From Balanoglossus misakiensis (Eukaryota; Animalia; Hemichordata): 64,000 nucleotides of DNA. The DNA is taken from NCBI GenBank assembly GCA_040954595.2, contig CM082594.2:11288276-11352275 (forward strand), in the 5' to 3' direction. A program made the position numbers and the translations under genes. The notes under the pieces are model-generated. The model was not told the origin of the DNA. It did not search any database and saw only the letters and a list, made by a program, of their open reading frames with translations. Below are positions 1,517 through 62,285 of this stretch, piece by piece. The first letter of the stretch is position 1. Each line of letters opens with the position of its first letter.

Positions 1517-4324
1517 ATGCAGAAGTTATCAGGTAAGAAACATGCCATGTATTCTTTACTTTTTAAACTACCTCTTTTTGTTAATCCAGTATGGAGTATT
1601 CTGTAACGCACAAAGCATTCAGAAAATCAAGACCTTTGCATCAAAAATCATGGCTTAAACACTAATGATTAGTTTTACTGTGGATAATAAAGCACAGCAT
1701 AATCTGACATATAATCATAATCTCTCAAGGTGTATTGATATGTCTGAAACTTGGCGTAATATATCGTGCAGACTGTGAAACTATCTGTCGCCATGACTAA
1801 AGTTCTGCACTTGCCATGTTTACGGAAATACAGAGGACTGCATATATAGTTGTGCGTCGGAAAGATAGAAAAATTCAGATTTCTAGCTTATGTGATCTTG
1901 CATTTTGTCGCAACTTACAGAAAAAAAATGTAAAGGGGCGGGGGGAGAACGCTTGCAGCGAAAAAATTCAATGGTCTGTGCTGCCTGATGTCTGAGACAT
2001 GTCTAGAAAAAACATACCGACATAGCTAAAATCTCTATTTAAATTCTTTAAATTGAAAAAAGTCAGTAGAAGATTAAGAACGTCAAAAATGATATTTCTC
2101 ACGCGTCGGTATTGTGTTGGAATGTTATGGCCACAAGCGCCTCGCACATTGCTGATTAAATTTTGATAATTTTTGGAATACATCGAAGATGTACACACAG
2201 AAACATGTACAAGACGGATTGCAGCGATCGGCAAACACTATTTAATTTTCTGTCTTTTTTTCCTTGTGGTCAAATATCGAAAATAGCGCTTCATGCAAAG
2301 AGCGGTTTACATACATGTTTATCATTACGATAAGTGGTTCCTTTACACGAGACAGGAGGAATAGAAGCAATACTCCTGACGTATTTGTACAGTTCATCAG
2401 TCTGCCACCCAAGGGCGATGGATGTGGGGAATTATCAAAGTTATAAAGTATTCTTATTAGAAAAGTGGTTTCAATCTGCAGAAACTGCATGCGAGCAACA
2501 GATCGCTGTGTCTGGCTGAGAAAATTGACAACTTTTACACAGTCAACTAAAGTTACAGTCGCAGTTTTACGTTACTCTCTGTAATCCTATGGATGCCATA
2601 CCTCAGAGTGGGGGACTATATCATTTAGGTTCAATACTTTTAGCCGACTTTATGTATAGAGCTCGTCAAATATTTACTAAATGCCATACTGCATGCATAC
2701 AACAAAAGTTAACTTTTCTCCTGTAACTGAAGTACTCTATTCTAAAAGTTGGTGTTGAGACACATAGTCTAAAAAGAGACAAAGTTTTACCACACTCCGG
2801 ACAAATCGTCAGGTTTCTTCACTCTGCCTTAAACAAGGGAAGCTTGAGAAAGATCAACGCTGTGTGTTTCTATTCTGTCTGCTTCTCAAGTTACATGTGA
2901 AACCAGAGCAGAAACCTTTTCTCCCAAACAAATCGTAGTTGTGTGATAACACACCATATAGATCAACTTCAGGGTGGCCTTTTGAAACATTTATATGTGC
3001 AAATCAAACACTGAGTGAATACCCTCAGTGACATTCTTTAGATCAGGTACTCAAGGAGATAACAGAATAATATTAGAGTAATATAATCCATAGAAAACCA
3101 TGTGTACCGATAAATGTGATCATATGTGATCTTTTTTTCAATTTTCAAATGCCGAGTGGTTGTTAAGAGATCGGAACAACCACCCACATACAAAAAGAGT
3201 TAACTTTGATATTGTTCGTTCAACATGTTGTCATGGGTAACAGATTGCTGTTTTCTGTGAATTTTTGAACCCGCAATTCTTCTAGAATCTAATAGCTTTA
3301 AACATAGCCATTTGTGTTGATAGCTTTTACAAAAAGACGAGAGATTTATAGTGGAGTATATTGATTGTCTGTGCAGATATTCAATAGAATTAAACCAAGG
3401 AAATGACATTTTTCTATTGATCCTTTACACTTGGACTTCAGATGTACAAACAACACAGCCATAAACAGGACGAAAGGAGTAATATTGTCTCATTTGTCTC
3501 TTTTAGTTACAATCACAGTTTGCATCGTCCTGACATGCCTTCTGATCTCGACCAGCGAAGGAGCATGTCGAAGTCGATGGAAGGTTTTCAGCATGGCTGC
3601 TTGCAAGAGATCGGAACAACCAAATGTTAAAGACTATCTTACAGAGTTCAGGATATTTGATTTAAATGACGATGGTACCATTACCTTCGACGAAGTCGAG
3701 GAACTTGAAGGCTTTCTCAAAGGAATGGATTATAATGGTAAATTCACTAAATATCAACTGAATTGTTAGACGTAGCGGCTTGATAACAAAATCAGATAAA
3801 CGATAAAAGATGATTTTGTCTTGAAATTATCTACTTTTTCTTGCACAGGATGAAACAATAAGCTTATCTACAGAGTGCATCCACGTAGTTCTTTAGATCC
3901 CTACCGTAGATAAAATTCATTTTGTAGACGCAATTTACATTTGTCAACTTATGCAACCATCACTCTCACTCACTTGCTCACTGACTGATTGACTCACTCA
4001 CTCACTCAACCACACACATTTCGCGAAATATTCAAGTCTTTCTTATGCTGTCTTGCTGTGTTGGCTGGTACAAACAGGCTCACTTTCATTCAACCATATA
4101 CATTCATTACATTTAGGAGTACATGTACTTTTTTGTCTATACACAAGCATATAAAATGCGAAATAATAGCCTCTCATGTTGGAAAAAAAGAAAACCACAT
4201 TTACTTTTAATGCGCCGCACCAACTAATGGTTTGTTTGTGTTTATTTCAGGAGATCAAAGAGTAAGCCTGACGGAATACATAATGGACGCAGAGAAGTCA
4301 GAAAGCGACGGACTCAATGTGTAG
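1517..4324 (+). CDS. Secreted peptide/EF-hand precursor 1 (106 aa); coding exons 1517-1532, 3507-3737, 4251-4324
   Basis: Canonical GT-AG introns, both phase 1 (G|gtaaga...ctcttttag|TT and G|gtaaat...tttatttcag|GA). Spliced ORF: MQKLSVTITVCIVLTCLLISTSEG-ACRSRWKVFSMAAC-KR-SEQPNVKDYLTEFRIF-DLNDDGTITFDE-VEELEGFLKGM-DYNGDQRVSLTE-YIMDAEKSESDGLNV*. It has a hydrophobic signal peptide, a dibasic site and two EF-hand loops. Confidence 0.88.
3961..4007 (+). repeat. Degenerate (CACT)n microsatellite in intron 2 of gene 1
   Basis: cactctcactcacttgctcactgactgattgactcactcactcactc. Confidence 0.7.
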
Positions 4325-5619
4325 ATGAAACCAAGTTTTGTTAAAATTTCAGATATACGGACATTACCCACCCCACAGCCTAGACGTAGGTGTTAGAGAA
4401 TGCCCCATTTCTGCACTTTGATAGTTTTGAGTTTTGTTATCAAGACACCCCCATACTTAATGATTTCTTTATCGCTTTCCTTCATTCATCACGGCTCGGC
4501 AAAACGCAGACATTGTCAAATTAAAGACACGGCATATAGGATATTGATCCATTAAGTCAAACGGATAGTATTTCGACTGATGTTGCAGACAGCGATATCG
4601 CTGATTATTCCAGAGATTCTGGCTCCAAGAAGCAACATGAGTATGATTATCCAGATAGCTCAAACTGCCAACAAATCTTTCCCTATGCAAAATACATGTA
4701 TCCTTGGATATCAGATTGTCTACCCAAACAATTTACTCTACATCAATTTTGTCGGTATTAAAAAGATATTTTGGGATGTTATATTACTTAGAGACATTTT
4801 ACCTAGGGGGTTGTTTACTTGAACTATGTCTTATTTTGCCTCTGTGTGGGGGATTTCCATAACGGAATGAAACGGTTGAACAGGGAGAGCTGTTGATTTA
4901 CTTCACTTTAGAAATGTAAAAACAAGATTCTTAAGCTTTGAAATCATTGAATGGTTGCCTCGGAAACCGACTTGCATTATTTGAATTTGGTTCCTAAGAT
5001 TCTTTCTTATTCACCCAATGTATGACTACCGATTTATTCCGTTGCTATAGTAGCATAGATGCACCAAACAAAGTCCTTCAAAGTAACACGTTCTATCTTT
5101 AGCTCTGATTGTTGGTAATATTTTACATGACTTCTCGATTTGTACATAATAAAACAAGGGCATCGTAATTACCTATATGCATCCTATTTGTAGCAAACAA
5201 GTGAAAGTATGTGCATTTTATTTGTTGCCATGGTTTTAACCGGTTCTTCTGATAAGAAGCCGTTGGTAATTAAAACATGCGAGACAATTTGGTTTAATTT
5301 GAGGAATACTTTTCCCTGGCTTGTCAAATATTACTACTTTCATGAATGGAAGTTAATATGTCCTTATAGGACATCGCCTAATAAAACATTTCGAAACTGT
5401 TGATAACAAAAGAGCGGTCCACCTACTTGTGAGAGTGTCTAAAAGTGCAATCTCTAAGAACATACCAAGCATGTGCATGAAAGATTTTGATCACAAAAAC
5501 AATAGTGCCCCAGGTCTTTTATATTAACTACTCCTGCGCTCAGGTGTAAATATTAAAGGAGAACCATGGCCCTGATTCTGAAACATCTGATGCCAACAAG
5601 GCAGTGGCCAACTGAACTA

Positions 5620-6440
5620 AATCTCAGACCCATAGAAAGCAGAAAAACTGTGATTGGAAATAACCAACACGCAGCCAAATTAGAAGCCAAATGAGCACAC
5701 TCGGGGACATTTGAAGTGGGCACTGTATGGATGCATGCAGATTTGACCACAAACACCCTTTTGCAAGTAAGAAGTTTTCAGGTACATCGTAGATATACTT
5801 TGATACAAATTTGCGAATCGACTTTCGCTTCTCAGATTGCGTTTTGGTGTTACTTAAGCATTCAACTACATTGCAGCATCGCCACCAATCTATTACTCTT
5901 TCCAATTGTCTGTTGCCTCCGTCTCATCTCCAGCTAACCCCTCTTGATCTTTGCATAACATTGACGCGCGTCAATTACAACTGTCGCGGTTTGCTGTCGC
6001 CATTTTGTGCTATTCAGCCAGGGCTCAGGATTTCCTGCAGGAAGGCCTTCCGCACCTTCAATCAAGGCCAGGCTCTTCGTCACAAAATGCAGCCATTAAA
6101 ACTGTCTTGGTTTCCATAGATACTGTTGTCGTCACTGAATGCTTATAATCTTGTTCCCCACGAAATTGTCAAATTTGGACAGGCCAGTTAATTGCGCAAT
6201 AATTTACTTGAAGTCTATTTGAAACTTGTAATGATGGCTTTCTTGGGTATGCGGTTCTGAAACTGCCTTAAACAGCAATTTGCACAAACACTGGCTTGTA
6301 AGCGAGGTTGGTAACTGCGTCAAAACAATTACAGCTAGATTGACTCATCCGTACATTCAAGTTTTGTTTCTATCCTGCGCATCTTTCTGAAGCACCTCTA
6401 GCGATATTTGTTGTAACTAAAACCCCTTGGTCGCCATGAG
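5620..6440 (-). mobile_element. Possible highly decayed transposon coding remnant
   Basis: Coding-like but stop-ridden. The segment TQSEKRKSIRKFVSKYIYD loosely recalls the N-terminal region of Ginger/gypsy-type integrases. No termini were identified. Confidence 0.2.
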
Positions 6441-9400
6441 AACATTCTACTATGATTTTCATCAACATGCTGTTGATGCTACCAAATGATTACACAACAT
6501 GGAATACTGGGATTTGGGAAAGAGCGGTCTACAAAATATAATCGCCAACTCATCTACTACTGCTATTACAAAACACTTACACAGACAAAATAGAGCAAAC
6601 AGAGCTTAATCCAACAAAAGAAGTGTGTAACAACAACAAAACAAAGACAACAACATCAACAACAACAAACAAATATAGACACAAGAAAAAAACACCCAAG
6701 AATTTCACACACTGAGGACTGTCAATCCAGTTGGCTGTTTGATACAACTGTGGATTGATAGCAGGGCATATTGTTTGAGTAGAAGTTGTGTAAATCTGTC
6801 CTGACAAAAGTTACATGACTAAAATTTCATAGAATATAAACGTCCTTGTGTTAAGTGTTTAATTAGCAAAGTTTCCCCTGGTAGTCGGTTACAGACAACA
6901 TATTAGTGAACAGATGTAATGTGATTTCGGTCTTATTTGAGCTCACACACATAATGACTAACTACCCGAAAAAAGATTGACTGCTGTAATGTGTGATGCG
7001 CCACCAGTGGTAACTTGCTTATGGGAATCTGTCACAGCGAGTGAATGTCAATCGTTGATGCGACTCTGTATCTTGAATCTATGTGGAAAGGCTGATTCAA
7101 GATACTATAGATGGTCGGCTGCAGTTATGGTTCAGGCAGGTTTTAACATTTGCCCTTTTAAATATGAAACATTAGGGCTGAATGTCAACTACACACTTTA
7201 ATCTAGGTGTTCAATCTATATGTTGTGTAAGATACAGGTTAGCACCATCAGTTAATTTTGTATAGTAGATACCCTAGACAGAATTAATACATTACTTTTT
7301 TCTTAGTATGTTTGTAAATTCGGTACAGGGCATCAGCCCATCATGGACACAAACTGAGATGAAATGATCAGATAAGAAGAGAGGAAAACTTGGAAAAAGA
7401 TAAAAAATAAATGTCGAAGCTTGTTTTCTTTAATGGTACACCATTGTCTCGAAACAACTCCTCGAAAGGGACGCTATCGGCATTTTATACGTGCATGTGA
7501 ATGCGTAGGTGATAGCTGAAAAATTGTCAACATTTACTCTACGTCGTTAGGTGGCGCTGTCTTCTAAAGACGATGCTATGAGATGACTCCTTGTGAATGT
7601 GGTTTAATTCTATAACTATAGCTGGCGCTAGTTACTTGGTATGAATCGGGTTACCTACGATTCAGCTATTTTGTTGAGCCGAACAATCACATTTACGCCC
7701 TCTACATGGACATGCACTGCTTTGGCAAATTCCAATAAAAGCACACATGCCTTGGATTTGGTGTGGCAAAAGTTACTGTTTTTCTGGCCTCACCAAGTTG
7801 AAATAAAAGTAATATTTTATGGTTGATCATGTGATAGTGGTCAAATCCAATGGTGAGTGGCTCATACACACTGTTTATATATACAGCACTTAGTACATTT
7901 ATTCATTCATCCGTAAAATCAATTGCAGTGAGTGTTGCCCTGTCTATGGATTGTGACAGCTACCTATTTCGCCGCAGAACAGCCAAGTGGTGGCGCAATT
8001 AGTTTTTATTTCAGACTTTAGCAAAAAGTGACACAGTTACTAAAGGCAGAAATACAAAATTTGGACAAGTAAGGGTAATAAATGCACATAGATAAAATTA
8101 TCTCGTATACATCCGGGCGGGGTATGATGCGAGAATGTGTCTCCATGTTCGATCAATATGCTGTACCTTACCCCTTTGGGCCCAAGTCTATTTCTGTCAT
8201 ATTTGATTTCAATCGCACTTGATCACAACGTCAAGTATTAGAGTTGATGATAATACACATCCCTAATGGTTTCGATCATAGAGTGAATTGTGTAAGGTGG
8301 TCAAACATAAACTCGTGGTTCACAGATAAAAATAGAAATGTGATACAGGTTTACCCACTGGCGTTTTTATTTTCTCTGGAAAAATGCTTAACAGGCTAAT
8401 TTGGATGAGAGATATTACAAGAGGGACATGGGAATTTAGATCCAATTTTTCCAAAGCTCCTCAGCAATTTAAAAACCATAGAAGAATCACACAGACCATG
8501 ACCTACTTGGTGTGTACGTACAGTGGTGAAAGTAAAACTTAATAGGATCCTATGCTGACATAATGTCATGTGTCATTTGTTTTTATTATGTTGATTCAGA
8601 GACGAGAGCAGTACGGAAAAGAAAATGCATGTGATTTTTTCGTAGCGAGAAATGCCATCGGTGACATTGTCTTCCTAAAATTGTATTTTAAAAAGATACA
8701 AGACCGGTTTTGTTCCAATCTGTCACGTTTTTGTCCTCCTGTCAGTACATATGGTGATGGCGTCAATATTTTTTCATACTGCAAGAAGTGTCAACGATGA
8801 CAATTTTTTTAAATACGTCATCCTACTGTGAGTGTCATCAGTCATGCTTCATCACGTTGACGTGAAGACAAAAGGCAAAAGAAGCAAACGCAAATATATT
8901 TATTTATAGAATTTAGGGACCATTTCTTGTTGGCGTAATAATGTTTCATGACGTGGATGTGACTTTGAACGTACCACATCGTGCGTGATTGCCTACAATG
9001 CACGGAAATTTAACCCGAGTTTCTATAAAAGTTGAATGTCAATTCTCTCAGGCTGGTTTAGTTATAGCTTGACTGAAGTCACGACTGACTTTTATTTACA
9101 GGGAAAGTTACTATTCGTGTGTGTGTTGTATTGTCACGACTAACTTAACAAGCTCTAAGTGTTCCCTCGTCACCATGGAAATATTCTTGTTGGTTAATAA
9201 ACGTCACGCTGACCATCAAACATTCATTGCTGGTCTGCAGTAAGGTCGTGGAGTCTGAAGAAGCTAAAAAAATCTTAAGTTTGGGTACAAATTCCTTTAA
9301 ACTTGCCTTTGAAAGTAGTCAGTTGCTTGACTTTGTTGATTTAGAACGCATGTAATTTATTCAAAGGCGTCAGTAAACTATTAGAGTTATGACTTCATAG

Positions 9401-9599
9401 GAAATGCCGGAAATTACGCAGATGCGATGTGCGTAGCAGTGTCGGATCATAAGTTGAATGAATGTGTTAGTAACATTTTTGTTACTAAATTGCTAAAAAT
9501 AATTACTTTTCTTAAATCTTGACAGAACATATTCGCTTTCCGGAAAGGTTTGACCTCATGGGGAGAGAATTTCCTTGTATTTCTATCAGCAGCATTAAA

Positions 9600-9854
9600 G
9601 GGTCTGGACAGAATCAACAGGGGAAGGTGTTGTTCAAAATCTGGATCCTCAAAAATTGTGACAGTCCGGCCTAAAGCTCTTGCATGAAAAATAGTGAAAA
9701 GTCAGATTTTGAAAGTTTGTATGGGTTGAAATATTTATCCAAAATGCACATGCACAAAAAATACTGATCCTCCCTTAACACATGGACATTACCAGTAGTG
9801 ACCCTCCCCCCAAATTGCACCAGCCCTCCCCTCCTGTTGATTCAGTCCTGACCC
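9600..9854. mobile_element. MITE, probably PIF/Harbinger-like
   Basis: Left end GGGTCTGGACAGAATCAACAGG; right end reverse complement GGGTCAGGACTGAATCAACAGG (20/22 match). Flanks AAA and TAA fit a degenerate 3-bp TWA target duplication. No ORF. Confidence 0.75.
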
Positions 9855-10608
9855 TAAATAATAATTACGTTAAGGAGCGATGTGTTTTCGAAGTCTAAAA
9901 GTTTGAGACATGCCAGTTATGACGAACAAAGTCCTCCTTGAACTGTATCTGGCAAACGTCACACAATGTAAAGTTCAAACTATTCAATCCCCCCTTTGAG
10001 GGAAATGCTGATACTTTCTGAAGCGTCTTCCAGATGCCCAGCTGGTTTGCTTCCTTGGGTGGGGTGCTTGAAGGCAATATTTCCAGTAGATAATCGAGCT
10101 TTCTCGATTCAGCGGGGGTGCGTCATCTATTGTGGGATGGCTTCCAAGTGGATGCAATCTCCGTAACCAGGAAACGCCTCAGATACTCCAATATATTATA
10201 ATCAGTGAATTGTGAGAATGATACAATGAGATTCTTTCACGCACAGATGCTTCCTACTATATTCTCCAAAGTCCCAGTAAAACAGATCGTCGCTTATATT
10301 AAAAGTGACGCAAAAGGGTCACATTTTAATGCTCTGATTAAACCCGGTTCTGACGTCCAACAGTTGCCTTAAATCTAAAGTTGTCATAAATGTTACCCCT
10401 TCCTCTCCTGACCATAAAGTAATATTACTCCTTCATATCTTACTGTGGCCCAAGGTTATTGGTTGTGTTTTACCACCGGCACAAATTATGACTCTTGTCA
10501 ACACTGCGTGATTTCAATGGATGACACCCCTGGTTTTATTTGAAGTGCTTCACTGGCAACCATTTACACACAGGATATGAAGCTGTGTTATGAACTGGCT
10601 CGTTGGTG

Positions 10609-10645
10609 TATTTAAGCGCTTACACCATCTGAGATGCGTCAGTGG
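10609..10645 (+). promoter_or_regulatory. Core promoter of peptide-EF-hand gene 2
   Basis: TATA-like TATTTAA at 10609-10615 with Inr TCAGT at 10639-10643. ATG at 10725. Confidence 0.5.
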
Positions 10646-10724
10646 GCCTCCAGCTTGTAGTTTATTACACCGTGTCTACCCGTCTTCTCAGTGCCGAAGT
10701 TTCAAACGCCCATATTTACTCAAG

Positions 10725-11938
10725 ATGAAGAAACTAGGAACACGTTTTAGTAAGTCAAGGAACATCACTTATTTGACATCAACACAATACTGCATTGTTC
10801 ACTTTCTGCAGCTAGCCGTTGAATTTACTCCATGTTTGGTGTTTTACTGGTTCCATTCAAATATGTGATGCAACATGTTGTATTTTCCAACTACTATCAG
10901 GCAACTTTCTAAGCACTCTAAAAGCCAGCTACAAGAGTGATTAAGTAGCACAAGGTGGTTTCCTGTAACTACTGTACGGTTACTATAGTATTTTGCATTG
11001 CTGATTTGAAAAGCGTTTTGCCAACGATCATACAAACGCAAATATTTTCTTCCGCAAGATTTTGTGTTTCTAGTCAATTTAAAGTTTTCACACTTATCAC
11101 ATGCAATCTGACATGCGTATACATTTTTGTTAAATTTCAGGTCTGTTTTGCATTTCCCTTGTCATCTTTTCGCAACTACTGGGAGGGGTTCGTTCCTGGA
11201 AAGTTGGATGCAGTTCAAAATTACCACCATCATTGTGTGAACTCAAGCGATCGGGATCAACGCTTTCTTCAAAGTCAACACTCAACAAGTCCATACAAGA
11301 GTTTGATTTCCTCGACGCGAATGACGACTCAGTCATCACCACCAGAGATCTTGAGATACTCGTGGAAACGCTAAGAAAATTAGATGCAGATGGTGAGTGC
11401 TTCTAGGTTTTTACCGCAATTCACTGTTTTGACATCAAATAGCTCTCTGGTGATGGATAGATCGATATATTCAAAGGCCGGTATGTTGAGCTTTCATAAT
11501 CATTTAGAAAATCTGTTCTCTCCGCACCAGTCATAATTCATTGCTCCTCTCAAACGCGTGCAAAGTTACAAGTTAGAGTGGTGGTATATTCCGCAACATG
11601 CGCACAAATCCATATGGTATAACTTTCGATTTAATTTTAGTCTAAACTAACATTCAACAATGACAGCGACAATGATACTGGGTACCCCTGCTATACAAGG
11701 TCGTCAAATGAATAACTGACAATATTAAAAGGGTGTATCGCTGTATCAGAACCAGTATAGTGACAATCACGTCAAATGAGTAGTAATTATTACACAGAGC
11801 AAGTATTTCCTCTCTCTCTCTCTGGATATATGGGATTATACCAAATTATTTCCTTTCTATTCCACAGATGATGGCAAGATATCGGTGTCTGAGTACTTCT
11901 TTGCTGACAAATCCGAAAGAACTCCACCCGTACAATAA
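10725..11938 (+). CDS. Secreted peptide/EF-hand precursor 2 (115 aa); coding exons 10725-10749, 11141-11392, 11868-11938
   Basis: Phase-1 GT-AG introns (A|gtaagt...tttcag|GT and G|gtgagt...ttccacag|AT). Spliced ORF: MKKLGTRFSLFCISLVIFSQLLGGVRS-WKVGCSSKLPPSLCEL-KR-SGSTLSSKSTLNKSIQEFDFL-DANDDSVITTRD-LEILVETLRKL-DADDDGKISVSE-YFFADKSERTPPVQ*. The coding frame is absent from the ORF track. Same intron arrangement as genes 1 and 3. Confidence 0.87.
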
Positions 11939-13319
11939 ACTAAGCTGATGCGGTGCATTTTAGTTGAGATACTTGATGATTATTTCATGTCTAGTACTGA
12001 ATATGTTTCGAAGAACTAAAGGTATTTTTGTTATCTACTTAGCAAACCTATAGTTTTTCATTTAAATAATTTTCCTGATCGTTACTGTATTTCCTTCCGG
12101 TTAAGTTTTGTTTTAGTCCATATTATAACTTGATTTCATTTTACATTGCTCGTCGAATAAGGTACATTGCAATCATAAACCATATTTGAATATTCTGGGA
12201 TAAATATAGATTTTTACATACTAAGATTACTGTAAGATGAAGTTGTTGAAAAACTGTGAGACTGACTTTTGCACGGGTTTCCAAAATTCTGAACATGTCA
12301 CTTCTAGACATCTTGATAATAATGTGCAATTCAAATTTAATAATTATATCATTATTATCATATTGTGCCTTTTCGCCTCATGGTATTCATAAAGAGCCTT
12401 ATGTGGAAATTAAAATCATGCATCAATACAATGTTTGGCATCATTTCGATTTTGTCATTTAAATTTGAAATGGCGGCAGTTATCAACATGCCATTTTCCT
12501 GTTTGTAACCAATACATTTTCAATATTCAGGAGATCAACATAACTATCACGGTAGATTTGGCCGAAAACTGTTGTAACATGGATCATCTCCATGATTAAT
12601 CATGTACAATATTTGATGCGATGTTTAAGCCAAGTGCTGGAATGTAACTTTGCTGAATGTAAGTTTGCTTACTTATAAGATATGTTTCGAAAAGTAACTG
12701 AATAAATTGGGAATCTTTCGGTATTTACCCAATGTATGTAAGAGTATCCTGTGTTGCTACAATGATTATAGTTCCAGGCTTGTATTCGTTGATTAACAAT
12801 AATGATTCTACATATCAAACTGACTGAAAATGCTAATAGTGGTACTACCATCCTTTCATTGCAACCCCAGCTGGAGTGCATTATCTCACACAATAACAAA
12901 TTATTCGTATGAATACAAGTATTCCAATTTGCAAGATAGCGCCACAAGTCTTAGGCCTACATGGTTAAATGCCTTTATTGAGATTTCATTGAAGGGCGAG
13001 TCACGGTTGGTGATAGATCGCGCAAAATCCATACTCAAACCTCCTCTTTTATCTGGAAAGCTTTGAATGAGAAACATCTTCCAACTGACTTGATGATACA
13101 TTCAGCAATTGCATCCGGGGTTTCCACGGTGACAACGATCGTCTACGTTTGGAATGTTTGCAAGGACATCCGTGGATGAGAGAAAAGGGGAGGGAGTGGC
13201 GCGTGCATCTTAGGCACATAATGCCTCAAAGGGATCCGACATGTTTCTGTTTGATGCGGGTTTTGATCCAGTGAATATAAAAGCAAAACTCATGTCAGCA
13301 TGATCCGCGGGCAAGGAAG

Positions 13320-13480
13320 AATGAACATTGAGGACAGACTCTCCTCAAAGAAAATAAAGACTATCAGTGTTACGGGCAAGGTTGTTTGTTGGAAGCATTT
13401 GATGCATTGAAATGTAAGGGAGTTCTCAGTAATGAAATTCAGCAACTCTCTTTTAGAACATGTTGGTGTCGTTTTACAAT
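13320..13480 (+). pseudogene. Possible decayed death-effector-domain fragment
   Basis: Across frameshifts it reads IEDRLSSKKIKTI...LLEAFDALKCKGVLSNE...LLEHVG, resembling the DED pattern LF..LE..G.LS..N...L..LL..IG. Judged by eye only. Confidence 0.22.
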
Positions 13481-15762
13481 GGACGTTGTGAGATTCCAGA
13501 ACTTGAAATTCGGGCTTTGAAAGTGGCACACATCAGATAACAAACTCATCATCAACGCTTCCTCAATGTAGTCAACTTGATTGAAATTGTCATATTTTAT
13601 CGTAATGTATGTTAGCGAGTTTCCAAACCTGCACACATTTGAAGAACGCCCTCAAGGTGGAAAGGAGAAGAAATATCCAAGTGTGTATTTTTATGTATGT
13701 TGAAATGACAGCGACTCAGTGTACGCTGATAAAGGGGTCTACAGTAATAGCAGTTGTACAAATTGAAACCCGCGAATCAGTCTGCAACTTTGATTACATA
13801 CACCTTGGATGAAGGTGTCCACTCAACAACTGAAAATTTTATGCAATTGAATGTCTTGGTGTATATGTATACTGCAGCTCATGAGTGCACTCACTGTGCT
13901 GTTATTGTAAAAATGACCTCTGTCGGAATCACTTAACGGCTGAATTTTGATTTCATGCAATTGTGTCATCTCTACGGTTGACTGATAACACCATCAGTCA
14001 CGTCAGCGCTGCACTGTAGAAAATTTATACAAGGTGCGGTCTTTGATGAGCAGAATTCTGTCACTTATGGCAGTCAAAGATTCCACAGACCAAGGCAACA
14101 GTAATGTCTGACATCGCCCGCGAAAGTGCATCATACAATAAAACATTATGTTATTCATATTTCTTTCAGAACGAACTTGGGGTTTACATTGGTAGACGTG
14201 CCTCAACTACTAAAGATCATAATTTTAGGGAGTATGTTGCCTTATTGGATCAGCTAATCTATTTCATGTAAACCCCTCTTCTCCATTTTCGTCTTGCCAA
14301 TAAGTGGAGGGAGACAAAAAATGTGATATTGACGTTAGTGGCGCTATATATATTGACAGCTTTACAGCTGACGGGAGACGACGGCGATTGAAATACCTGA
14401 GCTGTGACTTTCTGCATAGTGAGTATGTGATCCTTAAAAAGCGAGGTGCCTGTGGCGGATTGTTATTATTTTCGCATTGTGGTTTTCAGATTATGTCTTT
14501 CTCTCAACTCAGTTGCAGCGATACGCTGGAATGCCTCAGAAAAGCCCTGCATATTTTCAAAGGAAAGATTACAAGTTCAAAGAAAGCAGTTTTTATTTCA
14601 TACAATTTGTCGCCACTGATAACGGTTAGAATTTCACCTCGGGAAAAATTACACCCAAGAGGAAAACATCCATGTGCATTATCACGTTCATGGTCGTCAT
14701 CCATCATGGGAGCGATGAAGAAACCAATTCCTCTCCAGAACTAAAATTGATAAATCAATCACTTCCTTAAAATAGTCTCTAAGAGTTCCCCATTCCATGT
14801 AAATATTAGAACAGATCTGAAAAGTAGACATGTGGGTCCGTTTTGTTTTCATTATTAAAGAAAACAGAGAGGGTGCCTATCAAGTATTTTATCCACCTAA
14901 ACCTACAGAGTCAATCTTTGGAAGTTTCGGGGAAAATGAAACAACACTTTGTTGTACTAGTTAATGTTTAACATCATTTCATGCGGTTTGGGCCAGACAA
15001 TTGTGGTGGATTGGAAAACGCAAAGGCCTATCATTGCAGTGTAATTTTACTGCAGATGCAGACTGTAAATGGGGTCATGCTGTGTACGTGACATTATTTT
15101 GAATAAGGTCAACAAATTAAAGTCACTTGAGAAGTTGTTGTCCCTATATTTTGACTGACGGTGAACCGAGTGTTGCGAGGCCACCCACTTAAGCTGTTAG
15201 GAATATGTATTTCCTCAACAATCTAACTATGTTCCACGAAATCATTGAAATGCAATTTGCAAGGCATATTGCGCAACTTAAATATGGAACCACGCCATTT
15301 AAAATACTGATACAGACACCGTGCTGTTTTGCGACAATGTACCATAATCTTCCACCTGCGCACAAGTAGTTATCGATACTCTTCTTCATTAATGGAAGCG
15401 CGCTATTACAAAAGGAACATTAGGTTTCAAGTTGCTTGCGTTGAATACTTCTGTTAAATTCCAAGAAATTTCATATTATTGGAAAATTTCATACTATTCG
15501 TCATAACTGATTAAGATATGGAGAATATACAATTTCGGATCGCTGTTTGATACTTTTTATGATCTTTTTGATAAATAAGTTATTACTTTTGTTGTTTGCG
15601 CATGTTAAAGTTACATTAGCTGCAAATGTTAGCATTATTTTCATTATTTTACTTAAATTACAACTAGCTCATATGGATGTACTTAATAAGGGTAGTTGCA
15701 AGTATTATTTATCACTGAGTGGCACTAGCAGCACAAGCTTGAACAAAATAAACAGGTGTAAC

Positions 15763-15824
15763 ACTCAAATATGGCCGCTTCCATGGAGACGATACTCAAA
15801 TATGGCCGCCTCCTTGGAGACGAT
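15763..15824 (+). repeat. Tandem duplication of a 31-bp unit
   Basis: actcaaatatggccgcttccatggagacgat followed by actcaaatatggccgcctccttggagacgat (2 mismatches). Confidence 0.9.
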
Positions 15825-18800
15825 GGCTGTAGACAATAATGCTTATCTAACATTCATGGATTAGGAAAAACAGGCAAATTCAGAGGGATGGTTGGGGGCG
15901 GGAAGAGATCACGTCCTAAACCGACAGGAAATATAAATCTTTAAGTGCAACCGTCCCAGGCGGATCTGTGTTGCGTACGTTTATGTTGCCAATCTAGTGT
16001 TATATCACACCCTTGCGTCACAGGTCAGAGAAAGGTCTTTAAAACATATAGATTGGAACAGTTACGCAAATACAAACTGTTGTTTGAAGCTTACTGTTGG
16101 AGCAAAAGTCTTTATGAGTAATGCTGCATGTTTCATCAAAGTATATAGGACTTCCTGCCTTCTCTGAGATGGTTCTCTTTTATATTTGTGGATTTCCTTT
16201 AGAATTATAAACATCATTCTCTTTGAGATTATTGGTGTCACATTTTGAATTTAAAAACAACCCTCCAGATATTGTATTTTTATCTTCACTTTTCAGATAC
16301 AATAATACCGCCGGTTACCACTATGAAAATGTTTGGAAAACACTTAAGAATTTTCATCTTCAGTCACCTTGACTGCCTCTCGGATTTATTTCAAACAACA
16401 GATAAGAAACAAATGTAAATTTGACTTATCAAATATGCATGTGGGTATTGAAATATAACAGTGGAACTGTTTTCAGGGCAGATGTACGGTATCATTCTGT
16501 GCCCGAATGAAAACAATATCTCGGACAATCTTGTGACTAGAGTATTGCGACGCTACTCTTGAAGTCACTGGGAATAAATCAACTGTCACGGACATCGGAT
16601 TAAGCAAGGACTCAAAAAATTATTTCCGAATGCGTAGTCACCATCAATGCATCAATTTATATTTGATGACTTTCCCATTACGGCCACTTTTAATGTAATG
16701 TAAGCTGACCAAGTGAACATATAAATCACAATTTCGATCCAGGTTCCCAGTAAATCAATTACCACCTCGTGTTTTATGTACTTCGCGGGTCATTTGCGAT
16801 GCTGGCTTGGCAAAATTCAGATTTCAGCGTTGTTGAGTCTAAATAGCAATACTTTTGTGATTGCGTAGGTAAGGTTTCCATTACTATCCACAATTCCCCT
16901 GAGAGATAGTCATGCCCTATTTTAGAACAACGTGCTCTCATACAAAGCAGGAACCAAACATTTACAAACGAATGCGAGAACATATCTCAGATTAGACTAT
17001 GTAATTTGTCCCAAACAAAGAATTAAATAAATGTTTTTGTTTTTAAAAAAAAGCCTAACTATACACACAACGAAAAAGGCCAATAGAAAAGGACAGTGAA
17101 TAGAGAAGGGAAGAAAGGATGGAGTAAAAACCCCAGGGAAACCAAAATTGACTGGTAGAAATACGATGTAGTCATAAAATGCATTTCGTTATCATCACTG
17201 CTCAAACTGCCTGTCATATACCTCTACGATTTTATCGTTTGACATATACAATAAAATTTTATATCCGGTGTCTCGTTCAATGAGGGTCTCGTAACAGACT
17301 CCGTTTTGCAAACGTAGATGCTATGACTTTCCATTGGGAGATCTTCACCATCTGCAAGTCAAATTAATGGCATTGTCGCGTATCCTCAAAAGAACTGGGT
17401 TATTGGCATACATTGAGCCCTTAAACACTCAACAACTACTCTTGTTAATAGTCTTAAATCGTGACTAAATGCTTAAATTACTATGTCACAATTATATGTA
17501 GGCTGTATGTACTGTAAGACTTATGAGTGACACCTGAAAGTTGACCATGTACAACCGATCAGGGATTTCGTCATTAACATTTAGGCTGAAGTCATGATAT
17601 TAGTAGTAGCTAGAGATATGTGGGATATGTCAACATATATTCCATTCCCTGTGACGTGTGGGTAAATAGGAACTGCCCGACAATGTGGCCTGTACAGCTA
17701 TGGATCCAAAATATGAGATCTATGAACTATAGAAAGCAGATTAGTAATCAGGACATCCCCGAGGTGGTATAATCCTGTCTGTGTATATTCACTTGTCAAT
17801 GCCTGCAGCTATTTTCGCAAAGAATGTTTCAAAAAAACGTTTTTATAGGGAACCATGTGCTGGAATTCTATGATAGAATTTCAGCGATAACCAAAAGGCA
17901 AGTATTTCTGTTGTTTGTGTTTTTTGATAAGAATTTGTGGAGAAAAAACAGCCAGCCTTCCATTCATATGTATACACCTTAGAGCTAGAACAGGATTTTC
18001 AATTCATTTGAAACATTTTCACAAAAGTACTTTCCAGAAAACACCGAACAACCGACCGTTGTTTAGGATTTATGTTCAAAATCCCTGTGTAATCATAGTT
18101 TGAGACTCCAACGGTAATAGCCCACGAGTTTCAGCAGAAACATTGGAACAATATTTCCTTTGGATCAACTGATGATTTCGTTCAAGATTTACAGCAACCT
18201 AACTAAGTCATTAAATATTGACTTTTATTGAGCCTTTGATGGTTAAAATTGCCTCGACCTCGTGTACAGAGATCACCGCACTTTGTTCAAATTTGTCCTC
18301 CTGTGGTGATTTAATCACGAAAAATCATTCACGCGTGCCTATGTCCGATGCCAGTTCTACCAAGATCACAGTTAATGCATTTACATTTGTCTTTACCTGG
18401 CGTGAAAGGTTTTTACACACTCAGCATTTATCCACAACACTTTCGAAAGCTGTCAGCTAATATGCTTAAAACAATGTCTTCATGTCAATACAAACATTTA
18501 CATTTGTTTATTTTGAGCAATGCTAAACCCTTCTAATTATATGACATTGAACTTGAGGTTGTTCTGTACCTGAAAGTCAAAATTTGAATATTACACCATG
18601 ACGATACTGTACTGAAACATTCTGTGAAGCAATTTAGAAATGTGCCAACCCTTCGTTGAATGTTACTCCTGGTTTTCGTTTTATTATCAGTCATTCCACT
18701 TCCTTTAACCATCGCCGTTCATTGTGCAAACTACAAAATTAGACGACAAAGTCTGTTCAATCTGTGGGAGAATTGAGAACACCTCAACAAGCTCAGAATT

Positions 18801-20323
18801 TCATTTCGAGCGGCCGTTGAAATCGTTGTCCGTCAGGGGAGTTCTTGGTTAAAGATTCGGTAGAAATCATGAAGGACTATGGTAAAGAAAGTTTCTAGCA
18901 GGAGATTAGATACAGCCCATGTACCGGCGATTCCTTCATGTTCTTGATGGCCTTCCCATCAATTATTCATCCCCTGATAAGTTCCATGGATAATTTCTTA
19001 CAAGCATGTTGTATTTCCTTATCAACCCTCTATCTCCGCGCTGTTGTAGTAAATGGCTTTACTTTGAGCTCCCCCCCTCCAGGGAACAAACAAAAGCGCT
19101 GACGAAGTCATCCTATTTACACGTTTCAGAAGTTAGGCGAAGAAAAGATCAGAAAGACTACAGCGTTTGTTGTGAGGGCGTATTTGCCATGGTCACTAAT
19201 GTTACTTCATAAAACAACTTTTCACCTCTTGGCGATAAGACAACATATTGAGACAAAGACAATCAATGCTATGACGTATTTAACTAATTCAACTTTCCAC
19301 ATGAAATTTATGCCATGATTATAATTATTACATCAATTTTTGATATGTCATATTACTTTTTCAAAGGTTTAATATAGTCAATTTCCTTATGCTGATAATG
19401 CAGTAAAGTATGATGGGATTTATACTGTGGAAATGTTTCTGTTTTGACAACTGCCACTGAGCAGAGTGGGAATTTTTCATTCTTTCATCCCGTAGTCTTT
19501 TGACGTTTAACATGCCAGAAAGTCATACGTGATTCTCACTAATATACGCTCTTCGCAAGTTTACATTGGAAGTTTTACTTAGTTCAGTCGTTTCTCAGAG
19601 TTAAAATTTACGTTTGAAACTATTCCTCTCGTATGTCTCACTAAAATTGCCTATCTCGCTGCAATACACAAATTTTGTGAGCATGATTTCGCGAAGAGGT
19701 ACCGGCCTTTACTGGACTTCCTCCCTTCAGTGCTTGTTGTATTTCGTAATCGGATTTCTGATAAATTGACACTTCCTCCCAAATGTAAGGGTATAATTAC
19801 TAATCTATTATGGACTCGCCACTAGTAAGACGAACACGCGATCTAAATTTCGAAAGTTAGAAGAAGAGGATTTACCAGCACCTGCCCTGTGATAGGTGTT
19901 AAATTTTGCATGACTCAGAACGGGTGCCGAATAAACAAGTTATCTGATTTGGACACGTTGCAGTAGTTGCCATGGTTACTTTGCAAGGAAATGTAAGCCT
20001 TCAGTTAAGGCAAAACGTTACAGTGGGACAGACTATCTGAAACCTGCAAATCCTTCAAATCTTTACAATCTTTGTATTTATGATCATCTTTTACAAATTA
20101 TTTAATTTAAATTCTGACAATTCTGACTGAGTTAATACAGAAGAGCGCTCATTAATAGGAAATCAACCGTTGCCGGTCGTAACCATATTACAATTACTAC
20201 CATATGAACATAGTGTTAAGCTTTGAAAAAATTAGCAACCATGTATGCTATGATTGGATATTCTTAACCCCTTCACCCCACTTACCTGTTGACAGGTCCA
20301 GCACCGCCACAGAAAACAGCATA

Positions 20324-20513
20324 GTGTAAAACGGGAAATTTTCGTAGACAAGAATTTTTCGCAAACTTTGCGAGAGGCAAAAAAACGCGAAAATAAAAAG
20401 TTGCATAAAATTGCTTTTCAGAGATACAAGAACGTGAAAATTAATTTTCGCGTAACAGCTGCCTCCTTTGACATCACGAAAATTCCCTGTCGCGAATATT
20501 TCCCGTTTTACGG
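20324..20513. mobile_element. Tc1/mariner-type MITE with TA target duplication
   Basis: TA|gtGTAAAACGGGAAAT ... ATTTCCCGTTTTACgg|TA inverted termini, internal CGCGAAA-like repeats, about 190 bp. Confidence 0.75.
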
Positions 20514-20614
20514 TAGTTGGAGCAATCAATGGGTGTGACAGGGTAGAGCCTAAAATGTTGTTTGAATAGAAACAAGGATAAATGCACATGTGACATGAAG
20601 AACAAAGCGGGTTA

Positions 20615-20752
20615 CTAGAAACCTCTATATAGTGGTCACCTCTATACAGTCCCACTTTGTTACAGTCATGTGTGTTAATTAACCTAGCCACCTGTCTATA
20701 AAGGCCAGTTTAGGAAAGTCCCTTGATTGGCCTCTATAGACAGGTTCGACAT
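20615..20752. mobile_element. Degenerate pogo/Tigger-like MITE fragment
   Basis: Repeated ACCT(G)TCTATA motifs. The right end reverse complement GTCGAACCTGTCTATAGAGGCC imperfectly matches the left end AGAAACCTCTATATAGTGGTC. Confidence 0.45.
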
Positions 20753-21439
20753 AGGATAAAACGATGAAGCACTTACTTAAAGCACAGTTCATCGAGACTC
20801 TAAACTTGTTCTTGGAACTTCTATGAAACTGCTCTGCCATTTGAAGCCTCGGTCGGTACACTACCCGACATACGTTTGGTTCGCCTTCATCGGTCAATTT
20901 TCACATTCAAGTCTAGAAGGATATCAACAGATTCATGATTACTTGAAAGTTTTAATGACACATTGAATTTACAAATGTAAAGAAGAGTCATCCATGTAAA
21001 TAAACATTTCCAACCATTCTATAGCCTTAAAACTGTGTTTTTGATTAATTCTCAATTATATAGATTGACGATCTGATTGTATTGACACACCATTTTTCAA
21101 ATGAAGCAGTAGTCAACTCAGTCATGTAAAATAGAAAGTAAATAAAACGTGTCGGAATGCATTTATTGATCCATTTCTAACAGGGTACTTGAGAAAGAAA
21201 ATCTGTTTATGAAACTCCCGGACAAACCATCGCAACGACAACTGTCATAGCGTACGGTCATTCAAACACCGACGCCTCCGGTAAAATAACTTTTCTATTT
21301 CATATTTCAGCACTATTTCAATTCCCACCAATTCAACCGCGATATTAATGCACATTTCTGGTCACAAGGTGATGAAAAAGAGCAGCTGCGTCTCTCACCG
21401 AGAAACCTGCCTGCACATTTCCGTAACAGGATCGCGTTT

Positions 21440-21608
21440 CGCCTCATTAAATATGCAAACTTTTCGTTCAGAGCCTCCGCCTCATTTGCATACTTGATTC
21501 ATCAGCAAGTGTATATAAACACGTGTAGACGGCGATAACTTTCAAAGATCAGAAGACGCTGCGAAGGAGAAACATCCTTGTACGGGTTCAGATACATATA
21601 GACATCCG
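21440..21608 (+). promoter_or_regulatory. Promoter and non-coding first exon (about 21543-21608) of peptide-EF-hand gene 3
   Basis: TATATAAA at 21512-21519, perfect octamer ATTTGCAT at 21484-21491, POU4-like CTCATTAAATATGCA at 21443-21457. Strong donor CCG|gtgagt at 21609, with a matching acceptor gttttacag| at 24119 just upstream of the ATG. The linkage is inferred. Confidence 0.6.
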
Positions 21609-24155
21609 GTGAGTGGATCTTTACTATTTTCAATCTTTTTCACATTCAATATATTCAGGCAAGAATTCCATTACTTGAACTCGTGCAATCTCAAGTTTTC
21701 ACTGGGTATAATTCGGTCTAAAGCAAAGTTTCACAAATCAATTTGTCACAGTCAGGTGACAAGGAGCGTTGATGACATCTACAGCTGCAGAATGTTTTAT
21801 GAAATCAATTTTTTGTGACTGTAAGTATGTTATGGGGAAACATACAAACGACCTGAAAAATAAAATTAGGCTGCATTGCCTGCACAGTTGATACCTGTTT
21901 GTGAAAATCGACACTCGGACACAAATGGAAGTTAATGACAAGCAACTTCTCCTTTGTGGTGATTAGGTTTGCATTTGCCCAGTGTTCGATGACAGGACAT
22001 ACTGCGGTTGTCAGCAAGGGGCGGTTGTGGGTCCTATAGCACTTAAGCTGTGCAGTGTCACTTTAGCTATACTCTTTCCTTATCCCAAAGAGAAGCCCAC
22101 TTAAAATAATCATATCAAGTTATAGTTGATTTTAGTAGTTTTAATGACACTTTTGTGGTGAAGGACTGTTTCTTCCCAAATCCCAAGTTCTTTTCCGTCA
22201 ACATTGCCTGAGATTTTCAGACTTATTCTAGGCATTATTAACATTTTAGCCCACACTCCTACCACTTTTGAACTTGGAAGCCCTGCATCTACGAGACTGT
22301 TGGGAGGTAACTTTTAACTAGCCCTGGTTTATTTGCATTTGAAGAAATGACTGTGTTTTTAGACAGACAAGGGACAGCGACTAGTTTACTTTGTACTTCA
22401 CCTATTAAGTTTTAACATCACCCGAGGGGATGTCTATCAAATGATTCCCAGTTTGCTGTTGCCAACAGCTATCAATAAAGAATCGTATATACAGACCCAG
22501 GTTGGGAATTCTGGGCATTACGAACAGAAAACGATTACAATCATATATGGCACAACGTAGCATAAGCAATATTACAATTCTGTTAGCACACAGACCAAGC
22601 ATCTGTCACAACATCTGGACAACAATGTTTTGAAAGCAATTATTTGTGCACATGTCAGTTTACTCGACGCATGGGCATTCGACATGACAACAGAATTAAG
22701 ACTTAAAGCTCATAATTCTTATTTTGCGTCATGGGAATGCTGAATAGTTTTTAAAAGATATATATCATATCAAACTATCCATAAATCATGGTTCAATTTT
22801 TTCATTTTCATGTAGAGGTGAACAAAAGATATTGGATCTTACTTCCATCTTAATACACTAAGTGGTCACGCAAGCCCAATAAAGCGGCTTAATACAACTA
22901 TGGAATTATGATTTGGGGAAAATTAATTTCATATTTTTCTTTAAAAAAAGATTAACTATAGCCAGATTGGACAGGTAGACCAAACCTGCAAATTCAGCTA
23001 GACACTTCTATGAAATCTATTGTCAATATTCCATGTGAATCTGAGAATGTACCGGTTCAGTGTATGAAAGCACACGCGTGATGATGAATTTAGCAAATAT
23101 CCCTGTCGGAAAATTATTTAAATATGTCACATACTGAGGAGAATCACTTATTTCAGCTTTATTTCTTATCATTCACCCTTCTGCATTTATTCAAATTATT
23201 ACTGAAAGTTACTAATGATGTGAATAACAAAGTGAAATTTCTGCAGGCTTATGTAAATGAGATGTGAATGTTTTCCTTTACATTAGACGATTACCAATGT
23301 GAAAACTGCAGAGCTATGAATGTTAAGCGCGATTGACCATGGTCACTAAAGTGTAACTGAGAGATCGAGACTGTAGAAATTATTCTAGATCCACCAACGA
23401 GTCAGCACCAACTTCATAGGTGCTGTAAAAAGTTAGTGTAGACTGTGGCACACTCTGTTGATTTATTGCCTTTATCATATCTGGCCCGTTCTTCCGCAGT
23501 GGTCTCAGGATTATCACACAAGAGTGACTCCAGGAATGCACTTAGTGATCAATGTAGCATTGCCTCACGTCGAAATTTCTTTCAGATATCACCTTCAACA
23601 TGTTCCGAATGAATAGTCGCAGGCGACAAAGTGCCATTAAAGTGTATTTGGCCACTTGCTAAAACACGGTTTTAATGGCGATCGTGACCAGAAAAACATC
23701 CCTGTCGCCGGTTTGTCAAGATACAAATCACTGTGCGGCTTGCCAGCAATTTATTTACTGCATTGACATCAGGTTTTGAAACAGTCTCCCTTTGAAATCC
23801 ATGTCTAGTCTCATATTTTATAATTCTACGGTCTAGAATAAACCGTCATGTTAGGGTCTCAACAAAATAAGACTCGAAGACAGTGAGTGAGCACACCTCC
23901 CTTGTGGGTGTGATGGTACGATATACAATCAATAACATGTTACATTAAGAACTCTTTGAAGAATACACTTTACAGATATTGCAAGCAGATACATCGCGGT
24001 GAGCCGTGAGTTGAAATTCAACTGATGAACACGAATAGGTGCTCGCATAATTCAGAGACATCGCACATTTGTACAAAGTAGTAAATTGATCGTTCGTGTA
24101 TTTATCTCGTGTTTTACAGAGTCAAAAGAACAGACATATCTCAGACAGAAACACG

Positions 24156-26260
24156 ATGGAAGGACTTACTAAAGTCGCAGGTGAGTAAATAAAGAAGAAA
24201 AAAGCTATAACCTTTTAATTTGCACTTTCGCCATGATCATTTTAGTCTGGCGACGTGCGTTAAATCTGTGAGTAATGCATCTGATATGTATACTATTGGA
24301 TTGAAAGCACCGTGAATGACAGAATATTCTACATACATGTATGTCTTATGTATTGGATGGCTTGCTTTCCAGTGGTCTTGGAAATTTCCAACGAAACGAC
24401 TGAATATCAGATTCCGAGTACAGTAAATTGTATCTTCTAAGAAATTTAAAGAATCGTATTTCCCGAAATACTGATCACAGAACGGAGACAAAATCCCTTT
24501 GAAACAGTTGAAATTACGTCTTATCGCTGTTTCTCGTAGATTTCAAATTTTCAATTTGTTTTTATAGATTCATATGTACATCAGTAGATGTGACGAGTGA
24601 AAATCGATCCTGTATTGATAAATATGATAAGAAATGCAATTATTTTCTGCGACTGCCGCTGGTAACATATTGTCCGGTTTTTATTTCTCTCGATGTTGGC
24701 AATACTTTTCTTATCAGATGTAACAAATAACTTGCGATGCACAATATACCGTTTTCCTAATAATGATGACGTAGCTCTTTTGAAAGGAAGGAGATACAGG
24801 AGAAATTGATCAATCATATCTTTCCCCTGGATGGTGGATTCATTGTTGGATCTAGATTGGTCTAGCATAATGGGATTTTGAGGTGCTACCGGGTGAATAC
24901 ATAAAGATAAAATTGATATGATTTCTTTTCACATCTACAATATGCTGTTTTGGTGTCGGGGGAATGCGTCACAGCTAGATGAAATGCTTTTGAACGTAGG
25001 GAAGTAATACCCACAAGTCACATGGAAACACTACTTCATCGCTCGTGTATTTGTTTGTTTCGTAGTTGGAGGCACTACAGCTACTACCACAAAAACTTGC
25101 GATAATAATCGTTGTCGTTTCGAAACGCCAATCATGGCAGTGCATGGCAAAGTAAGACCTGAAACTTATGCACTGATGAAGCAGGACTGTTCATCCGAAC
25201 CAAAACAAACTCCTGCACAATGCAACTTACCGTACTCTTTGTTTCTTCACAGGTCTGCTCCTGGTTACGTCACTTGTACTCTTTCAAGTCACAGAGTCTC
25301 TTCGTATGAACCCAAAGCTTCAATTCCACCCTATGCAAGGCAAACGAATGGAAACAGATGATGTCATCACATTCAGTGACCTCGACAAGGATAGAGATGG
25401 GGTGGTCAGCATTTCCGATCTCAAGAAGGTGATAGAGTACCTGGTAGACGCTGACCTGGATGGTAAGTCATCCAAAAGTTCAAACTCGGAAAAGAAACTT
25501 AGTTCTTTTAATGTATACTTAGAAGGAATTAAAATGTAGAAGGGCTTACATGAGTGTCTTGGTTCAAAACTAAATGGGTGGAATGTTATGTAAGTTTGTA
25601 TTTTCCTGGATGAACTCACAACTGGCATGTATCATACATTCACATCGCGTTAGTCACCAAAATATAATCACAATGTCATTCAGAAGAGCTATCACAATTG
25701 CCTTATGGCGTTGAGTTCAAGTCAAGAGAGATACAGAATAAATCCCCTTGCAGTTGAGTAAAACTAGGAAATATACTGATAAACTGACAGATACTATCTT
25801 GGGAGCTGAATCAACGATAAATCATTGAGGACTTTATTTGCTAGGTCCCACTTGCCGTAAATTGCCTATACCTTCGAGAGCGCCACTCTGAACAAAAGGT
25901 CAGAGATCACACTTCCATACTCCATGGTCTCTTCAACTTTTCACAGTATAAATGCAAGAATGTCATCAAGGGTATAACATCAATGAAATATTTATCTCTG
26001 CAATAAGTAACCTCACGCACCACCTACTGCAGTTTGTAGCATACAGTTTCTACACGTTATTTCACTCAATTTCTACACTTGAACTGTAATTTGTACAATA
26101 CAAAACAAAATGGCAAAGTGTATTTTTGATAATCACAGCGGATAGAGAGCACTGAACTTGTTTTCCACCCTCCCCAAATTCTTCTAAACGATTATCCTAT
26201 TTTTTTAAAGGTGATGGAGAGGTGACTGTGAAGGAATGGAGTGGTGTCGACTCCTGGTGA
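24156..26260 (+). CDS. Secreted amidated-peptide/EF-hand precursor 3 (94 aa); coding exons 24156-24180, 25253-25462, 26211-26260
   Basis: Phase-1 GT-AG introns (G|gtgagt...tttcttcacag|GT and G|gtaagt...tttttttaaag|GT). Spliced ORF: MEGLTKVAGLLLVTSLVLFQVTES-LRMNPKLQFHPMQ-GKR-METDDVITFSDL-DKDRDGVVSISD-LKKVIEYLVDA-DLDGDGEVTVKE-WSGVDSW*. Confidence 0.88.
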
Positions 26261-61886: not shown

Positions 61887-62285
61887 ATGATCCGAAACAT
61901 ACTGGCCCTTGCATGCGTCGCTTTCCTGATTTCAATACAAGCCGTGACTGAAGCCATAAACTGTTCCGATGGCAGGCCGATGTTGATCGACAGTGTCCGA
62001 GAACGTCTTCCTGACCTCAAGCCACACGTCAGAGAGAGGGTTGGCCGCTGGATACCGTATCCACCGGCCGAAGAATGGACAGATGCCGAAGTGGAGGGCG
62101 TGGTGAGGTACGCTGTTAGTCACATGATGGACAACCCAAAAGTGGTGGAGATACTGAACCAGTGTTATGCAGATTTCACCGTCAGATCCCAAGCCTACAT
62201 CAACTCTTGCAATGCTGCTGCAGCAGGGTCCGGAAAGAGGAAGAAAAATTGGTTGGATATGGTGGATAGCTCACAAATTGTATAA
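61887..62285 (+). CDS. Secreted orphan protein precursor (132 aa), single coding exon
   Basis: Acceptor ttctttctttccctgaactag| at 61851, ATG at 61887. MIRNILALACVAFLISIQAVTEA signal peptide, then 92 aa (INCSDG...CNAAAAGS, 3 Cys), then GKRKK and NWLDMVDSSQIV*. GC content is elevated and coding-like. A donor at 62287, acceptor at 62513 and AATAAA at 62692 define a 3' UTR exon. Confidence 0.82.
   Translation: MIRNILALACVAFLISIQAVTEAINCSDGRPMLIDSVRERLPDLKPHVRERVGRWIPYPPAEEWTDAEVEGVVRYAVSHMMDNPKVVEILNQCYADFTVRSQAYINSCNAAAAGSGKRKKNWLDMVDSSQIV

Follow-up and report, generated by a model that had tools for sequence, protein, structure and literature searches.

An annelid tetradecapeptide gene with a C-terminal EF-hand is described in passages of PMC2762978, and passages of PMC4772807 group the annelid tetradecapeptides with the allatotropins. 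According to passages of PMC5818035 and PMC10987541 a conserved tail is common to the precursors of allatotropin and of Saccoglossus orexin, and in the supplements of PMC8557429 and PMC10987541 the allatotropin/orexin tail ends in one EF-like loop. Here, three tandem genes of the acorn worm Balanoglossus misakiensis, termed g1, g2 and g3, were analysed in a 64-kb window (the whole stretch of 64,000 nucleotides; assembly GCA_040954595.2, contig CM082594.2, positions 11,288,276 to 11,352,275; coordinates below are those of the window). At a probability of roughly 0.6, these paralogous genes encode precursors that are likely secreted and cut at a Lys-Arg (KR) site, releasing a signalling peptide (neuropeptide or hormone) from a predicted calcium-binding tail. 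No paper among those searched reports the family, which agrees with an earlier note on this DNA that did not recognise it; the literature found by full-text search, in which the Saccoglossus accession given below was not itself a query, does not describe it.

The gene models were rebuilt from the sequence. All three genes lie on the forward strand with three coding exons apiece, and their products are 106, 115 and 94 residues long. The precursors have a common layout, namely a signal-like hydrophobic N-terminus, a short peptide, KR or Gly-Lys-Arg (GKR) and two EF-hand-type loops, and in this the models agree with the earlier note. Its argument for paralogy from shared phase-1 introns was also borne out, as all six introns are GT-AG introns in phase 1 and intron 2 splits codon 4 of EF loop 2 in each of the three genes. 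Segments that are free of stops and combine a hydrophobic stretch with KR and an EF-like loop, a pattern that was written after the genes had been seen, occurred three times in the window and in none of 20 shuffled windows. The tail-to-tail alignment scores of the three genes were matched by 0, 2 and 0 of 2000 shuffles; because these shuffles leave generic EF-loop likeness uncontrolled, the shared intron is the stronger evidence. Judged by these features g1, g2 and g3 are paralogous genes and, as had also been noted, their peptides differ, with a ring predicted for g1, another ring for g2 and a linear peptide for g3. A scan of the window with the family profile found only these three copies and no fourth. 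Since g1 lies at the left edge of the window, further copies may lie upstream.

The signal peptide of g1 starts in coding exon 1 (1517..1532), ahead of which there is a TATA-like box at 1426. Exon 2 (3507..3737) encodes the remaining signal peptide, the peptide, KR, loop 1 (3659–3694) and the start of loop 2, and exon 3 (4251..4324) the remainder of loop 2, an acidic tail and the stop. Signal peptides were called from hydropathy and the -3/-1 rule. The predicted cyclic peptide of g1, ACRSRWKVFSMAAC, has 14 residues and a C-x11-C ring and occupies, together with KR, positions 3563..3610 (peptide 3563–3604, KR 3605–3610). An exact 18-base copy of part of exon 2 (3605–3622, from the KR codons) lies at 3165–3182 in intron 1 and is probably trivial.

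All three candidates retrieved with exon 2 of g1 were relatives, namely Ptychodera flava XP_070536173.1 (80% identity), Glandiceps talaboti XP_077993911.1 (66%) and the record P0007 (52%), and a profile search added Saccoglossus kowalevskii XP_002735339.1 (LOC100378469). Ptychodera, Glandiceps and Saccoglossus represent three families of Enteropneusta. The relatives start at the same position as g1, and exon 3 aligns continuously with the full-length ones; the join of exons 2 and 3 is supported because the named relatives align with the g1 model across it. P0007 is a whole precursor on a contig of 1,150 bases, which suggests a spliced transcript. No RNA sequencing run was listed as carrying gene 1, a result that is uninformative on expression. 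The supplements of PMC8557429, PMC10508912 and PMC6188537 did not contain the peptide motifs or the Saccoglossus accession sought in them, and those of two 2013 surveys (Jekely; Mirabeau and Joly) could list the gene.

Conservation among the five gene-1 sequences begins at the predicted signal cut. In the peptide 8 of 14 columns are invariant (C, R, R, W, K, V, A, C) at a mean pairwise identity of 0.80, as compared with 24 of 59 columns and 0.60 in the tail and 0 of 17 columns and 0.28 in the signal region. Both cysteines and KR are kept in all four relatives, in agreement with the earlier note, and KR occupies residues 39–40 in these relatives as well as in g1 and g3. The note had further described the peptides as fast-evolving, which is contradicted for gene 1 by the conservation of its peptide; that conservation fits a receptor ligand. 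Its conservation in three acorn-worm families makes the gene-1 peptide a likely neuropeptide or hormone that has so far gone unrecognised. All three named relatives carry the label 'uncharacterized', where the label 'calmodulin-like' had been anticipated.

The invariant WK within a 14-residue single-disulfide ring raised the question of somatostatin, since in the passages of bioRxiv 129783 and PMC7536072 the SS2 peptides of chordates and echinoderms have WK, within a short single-disulfide ring, as their conserved motif. That gene 1 represents the somatostatin/allatostatin-C family in acorn worms is nevertheless highly improbable. The somatostatin-type peptide is C-terminal in its precursor in the passages of bioRxiv 129783, whereas that of g1 directly follows the signal peptide, and passages of PMC7536072 give a phase-0 intron in the N-terminal part, whereas both introns of g1 are in phase 1. 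Gene 1 accordingly already fails two defining features of these precursors. In addition its core is RWK rather than FWK or IWK, and the passages of the two papers report no EF tail.

For g2, coding exon 1 (10725..10749) is a prediction, being the best of five candidates and without an orthologue. Exon 2 (11141..11392) encodes the signal peptide, the peptide (about 11197–11244), KR (11245–11250), loop 1 (11314–11349) and the start of loop 2, and exon 3 (11868..11938) encodes the remainder of loop 2 and the stop. The predicted peptide is (VRS)WKVGCSSKLPPSLCEL with a C-x8-C ring. The signal cut is ambiguous, residues 23, 24 and 27 being among those after which it may fall. If it falls after residue 27, 'RS' lies within the signal peptide and WKV alone is common to g1 and g2, so that of the RS(R)WKV trace reported earlier for these two genes WKV holds and RS is uncertain. 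The coding sequence of g3 starts in exon 1 (24156..24180), and likely non-coding upstream exons, predicted from sequence, end at about 21609 and lie at about 23976–23998, preceded by a TATA-like box at 21512. Exon 2 of g3 (25253..25462) encodes the signal peptide, a linear 13-residue peptide with its Gly (25300–25341), KR (25342–25347), loop 1 (25384–25419) and the start of loop 2; the remainder of loop 2 and the stop are in exon 3 (26211..26260). The peptide, LRMNPKLQFHPMQ, ends in PMQ before the Gly of GKR, while g1 and g2 are without an amidation signal. Overall the predicted peptides are 13–20 residues long with 0 or 2 cysteines. Their net charge is +1 to +3 and that of the tails -7 to -13, which is weak ground for the proposal that the acidic tail neutralises a cationic peptide.

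The acidic tails each bear two 12-residue EF-type loops with acidic ligands and are free of cysteine in all six cases checked. The two loops start 23 residues from each other in g1, g2, g3 and the four gene-1 relatives alike. In calmodulin the starts are about 35–36 apart, and between the loops of an ordinary EF pair two helices and a linker are required. The features of a calmodulin-type pair were found in the 12-residue acidic loops and not in the spacing between them. In the structure model of the tail a single helix (residues 27–40) separates the loops, and with one helix and starts only 23 apart the loops would likely pair between molecules, not within one. A fold search with this weak model gave no clear match (best Z 3.5, root-mean-square deviation 4.3, 56 aligned), and Foldseek gave none at E 0.001. 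A model of the full precursor was set aside at a predicted local distance difference test (pLDDT) score of 53. Among the Pfam EF families, exon 2 of g1 and of g3 scored at E 1e-4 to 5e-3, below the cut-off, and exon 2 of g2 gave no match; the records P0006 and P0007 scored above the cut-off. Sequence search of the PDB returned generic calmodulin-type matches only, and Rfam returned none. Of 315 pattern matches in metagenome contigs 3 were retained, and each of these proved to be a chance match to the peptide word in GC-rich DNA without KR and the tail.

The profile search covered 1.84 billion representatives with a profile of 77 positions that includes little of exon 3. It gave 3427 matches at E 0.001, of which the best 150 were examined, so that weaker paralogues could rank lower. 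These 150 comprised one family member and 149 multi-loop EF proteins, and a spacing of 23 residues occurred at least once in 38 of the latter. The spacing is hence not unique, and many of the short-spaced matches look, by their sequences, like secreted bacterial repeat proteins. Such short-spaced repeats would accord with proteins that are secreted whole as small calcium-binding proteins with KR left unused, as would the conservation of the tail itself (mean 60% identity). This is improbable since KR is invariant in all seven family sequences (the three genes and the four gene-1 relatives) while the peptide before it varies between paralogues, and since g3 carries the amidation signal GKR.

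In the ESM Atlas all matches scored under 0.9, and the nearest unnamed clusters include allatotropins (0.86 and 0.85), which is no more than a lead. Unnamed or EF-hand clusters of mollusc proteins (108–145 residues) score 0.84–0.87 against the gene-1 relatives there and may be similar peptide-plus-EF precursors. An origin as an offshoot of an orexin/allatotropin precursor, in which the peptide was replaced and the first EF loop, lost from allatotropin/orexin tails, was kept, would be compatible with the favoured reading. Saccoglossus orexin has the same order of parts and a similar size, and by eye the part of it that precedes the single loop looks like the end of loop 1 here, a likeness that may be generic to EF pairs. 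The allatotropin lead points to such an origin, which is nonetheless doubtful: tails of the orexin/allatotropin type carry a single loop with a more extended helical linker, their peptides show no relation to those of g1–g3, and the best 150 of the 3427 profile matches contain no orexin or allatotropin precursor.

In the favoured reading, that of secreted and KR-cut signalling precursors, established prohormone biology would have the precursor enter the secretory pathway and lose its signal peptide, after which a convertase would cleave at KR and the basic residues would be trimmed. One disulfide would close the ring in the g1 and in the g2 peptide, and the g3 peptide would be amidated from its Gly. 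The released peptides may then act on G protein-coupled receptors, and the tail may be a co-secreted calcium-binding piece that aids sorting or storage in secretory granules. According to passages of PMC10508912, PC2 and related processing enzymes are expressed in Saccoglossus. By analogy, a signalling role is supported by bona fide neuropeptide precursors with the same plan (allatotropin, Saccoglossus orexin and aplacophoran pleurins), and the GKR ending of g3, the ESM Atlas lead to allatotropins and two more peptide-precursor-like genes in the window also point to it.

Several results weigh against this reading. Position 12 is Asp in loop 1 of g2 and of g3, and loop 2 of g1 and loop 1 of g2 are without Gly6; because several loops depart from the ideal in this manner, calcium binding by the tail is a prediction. 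Confidence in the tail model is low (mean pLDDT 65). In gene 1 the excess of peptide over tail conservation reaches significance in no more than 3 of 10 pairs, each of which involves P0007, and the safe statement is consequently that the peptide is at least as constrained as the tail. Relatives of g2 and g3 were found neither by word-indexed search nor among the best 150 of the 3427 profile matches, and these two genes may therefore be young or fast-evolving. The word-indexed search with their second exons gave 11 candidates, none at E 10 or better, with subject lengths of 37–146 only. Lastly, the nearest two-loop layout is that of mytimycin, an antifungal peptide precursor.

The mytimycin layout, comprising a signal peptide, a cysteine peptide, a basic site and two terminal EF loops, opens the alternative that the peptides serve as effectors in defence or are secreted as such from glands (antimicrobial, deterrent or pheromone), the acidic EF tail being a pro-piece as in these mussel precursors. 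Tandem paralogues with differing peptides, and the failure to find relatives of g2 and g3 in the searches above, would fit lineage-specific effectors. The strong conservation of the gene-1 peptide across three families runs counter to this, and the peptides are short, of low charge and with 0 or 2 cysteines, unlike mytimycin. An effector role is on balance rather unlikely.

Beyond the three tandem genes, a two-exon precursor-like gene of 81 residues was found on the minus strand (36923–36763 and 36295–36211), which encodes a signal peptide, GCPKAGCMPELYGSRW, GKR and a short acidic tail without EF loops. Its predicted amidated C-x4-C peptide ends in RW-amide as luqin does; the tail of the 81-residue gene is without cysteines. 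No Pfam match and, among proteins of 29–93 residues, no homologue candidate was obtained for it. On the plus strand a single-exon open reading frame of 132 residues (61887–62285) starts with a signal-like N-terminal part, continues for some 90 residues that include three cysteines, and closes with GKR and a short tail; it gave no meaningful Pfam match. Apart from five small genes of secreted-precursor type no gene was recognised in the window, which suggests a cluster of peptide genes, although short exons of others may be missed. Overlapping stop-free stretches of 94–185 residues on the minus strand (60140–60851) have a Cys/His spacing that resembles a zinc-finger transposon remnant.

The gene-1 peptide is a specific candidate ligand that can be synthesised, with conservation that extends over three acorn-worm families. 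Its receptor and its expression can be tested directly, as the model species Saccoglossus kowalevskii has the unannotated gene LOC100378469. The tail is a small two-loop version of the EF-like tail known from the allatotropin, orexin, pleurin and mytimycin precursors. The function of the mytimycin tail is called unknown in passages of PMC8004829, and the orexin passages of PMC5818035 and PMC10987541 give none for theirs; a calcium binding or sorting role, if shown here, would bear on all four kinds of precursor. A bolder and quite unlikely proposal is that the compact two-loop tail is a reusable carrier for unrelated peptides, a fuller form of the orexin/allatotropin 'cryptic peptide' that oligomerises with calcium in order to package its cargo. 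In g1 this cargo would be a WK ring of somatostatin-like kind, evolved on a precursor of non-somatostatin type, with somatostatin/allatostatin-C- or urotensin-type receptors as its targets.

Of the described systems, nucleobindin/nesfatin-1 is a secreted EF-hand protein from which cleavage at a dibasic site frees an N-terminal peptide, and both its precursor and its peptide are much larger than those of g1–g3. No sequence match to it was found in the searches made here. Neurophysin is a cysteine-rich carrier, and the cysteine-free tails accordingly argue against vasopressin/neurophysin as the precedent named in the earlier note, while mytimycin, also named there, is retained; the closest systems are allatotropin/orexin, pleurin and mytimycin. 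Within the pleurin/Helix command-neuron precursors some, e.g. the aplacophoran pleurin, end in one EF-like loop that is absent from the brachiopod and nemertean pleurins compared, and their peptides end in PRX-amide, whereas g3 ends in PMQ-G and g1 and g2 are not amidated. The mytimycin precursor, as given in passages of PMC8004829, shares with g1–g3 an anionic tail ending in two EF loops, but its mature peptide is cysteine-rich and about 55–60 residues long and its loop starts are 35 apart by hand count. The allatotropin and orexin precursors likewise consist of a signal peptide, a peptide, a dibasic site (GKR) and a tail with an EF-like loop. The peptides of g1–g3 are in contrast neither of the allatotropin type (HG[FY]-amide) nor the six-cysteine amidated orexin of ambulacrarians, and by eye two loops 23 apart stand here in place of a single terminal loop behind a long helical linker. 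Allatotropin/orexin is moreover a single-peptide family, whereas tandem genes with unrelated peptides are present here. As far as their sequences go, the genes of the window resemble the precursors of allatotropin/orexin, pleurin and mytimycin but belong to none of these kinds, from each of which they differ in peptide type and in the number or spacing of loops. The precursor plan is known; what is new are the peptides, the two-loop tail with its spacing of 23 residues and the presence of three different peptides on one tandem scaffold.

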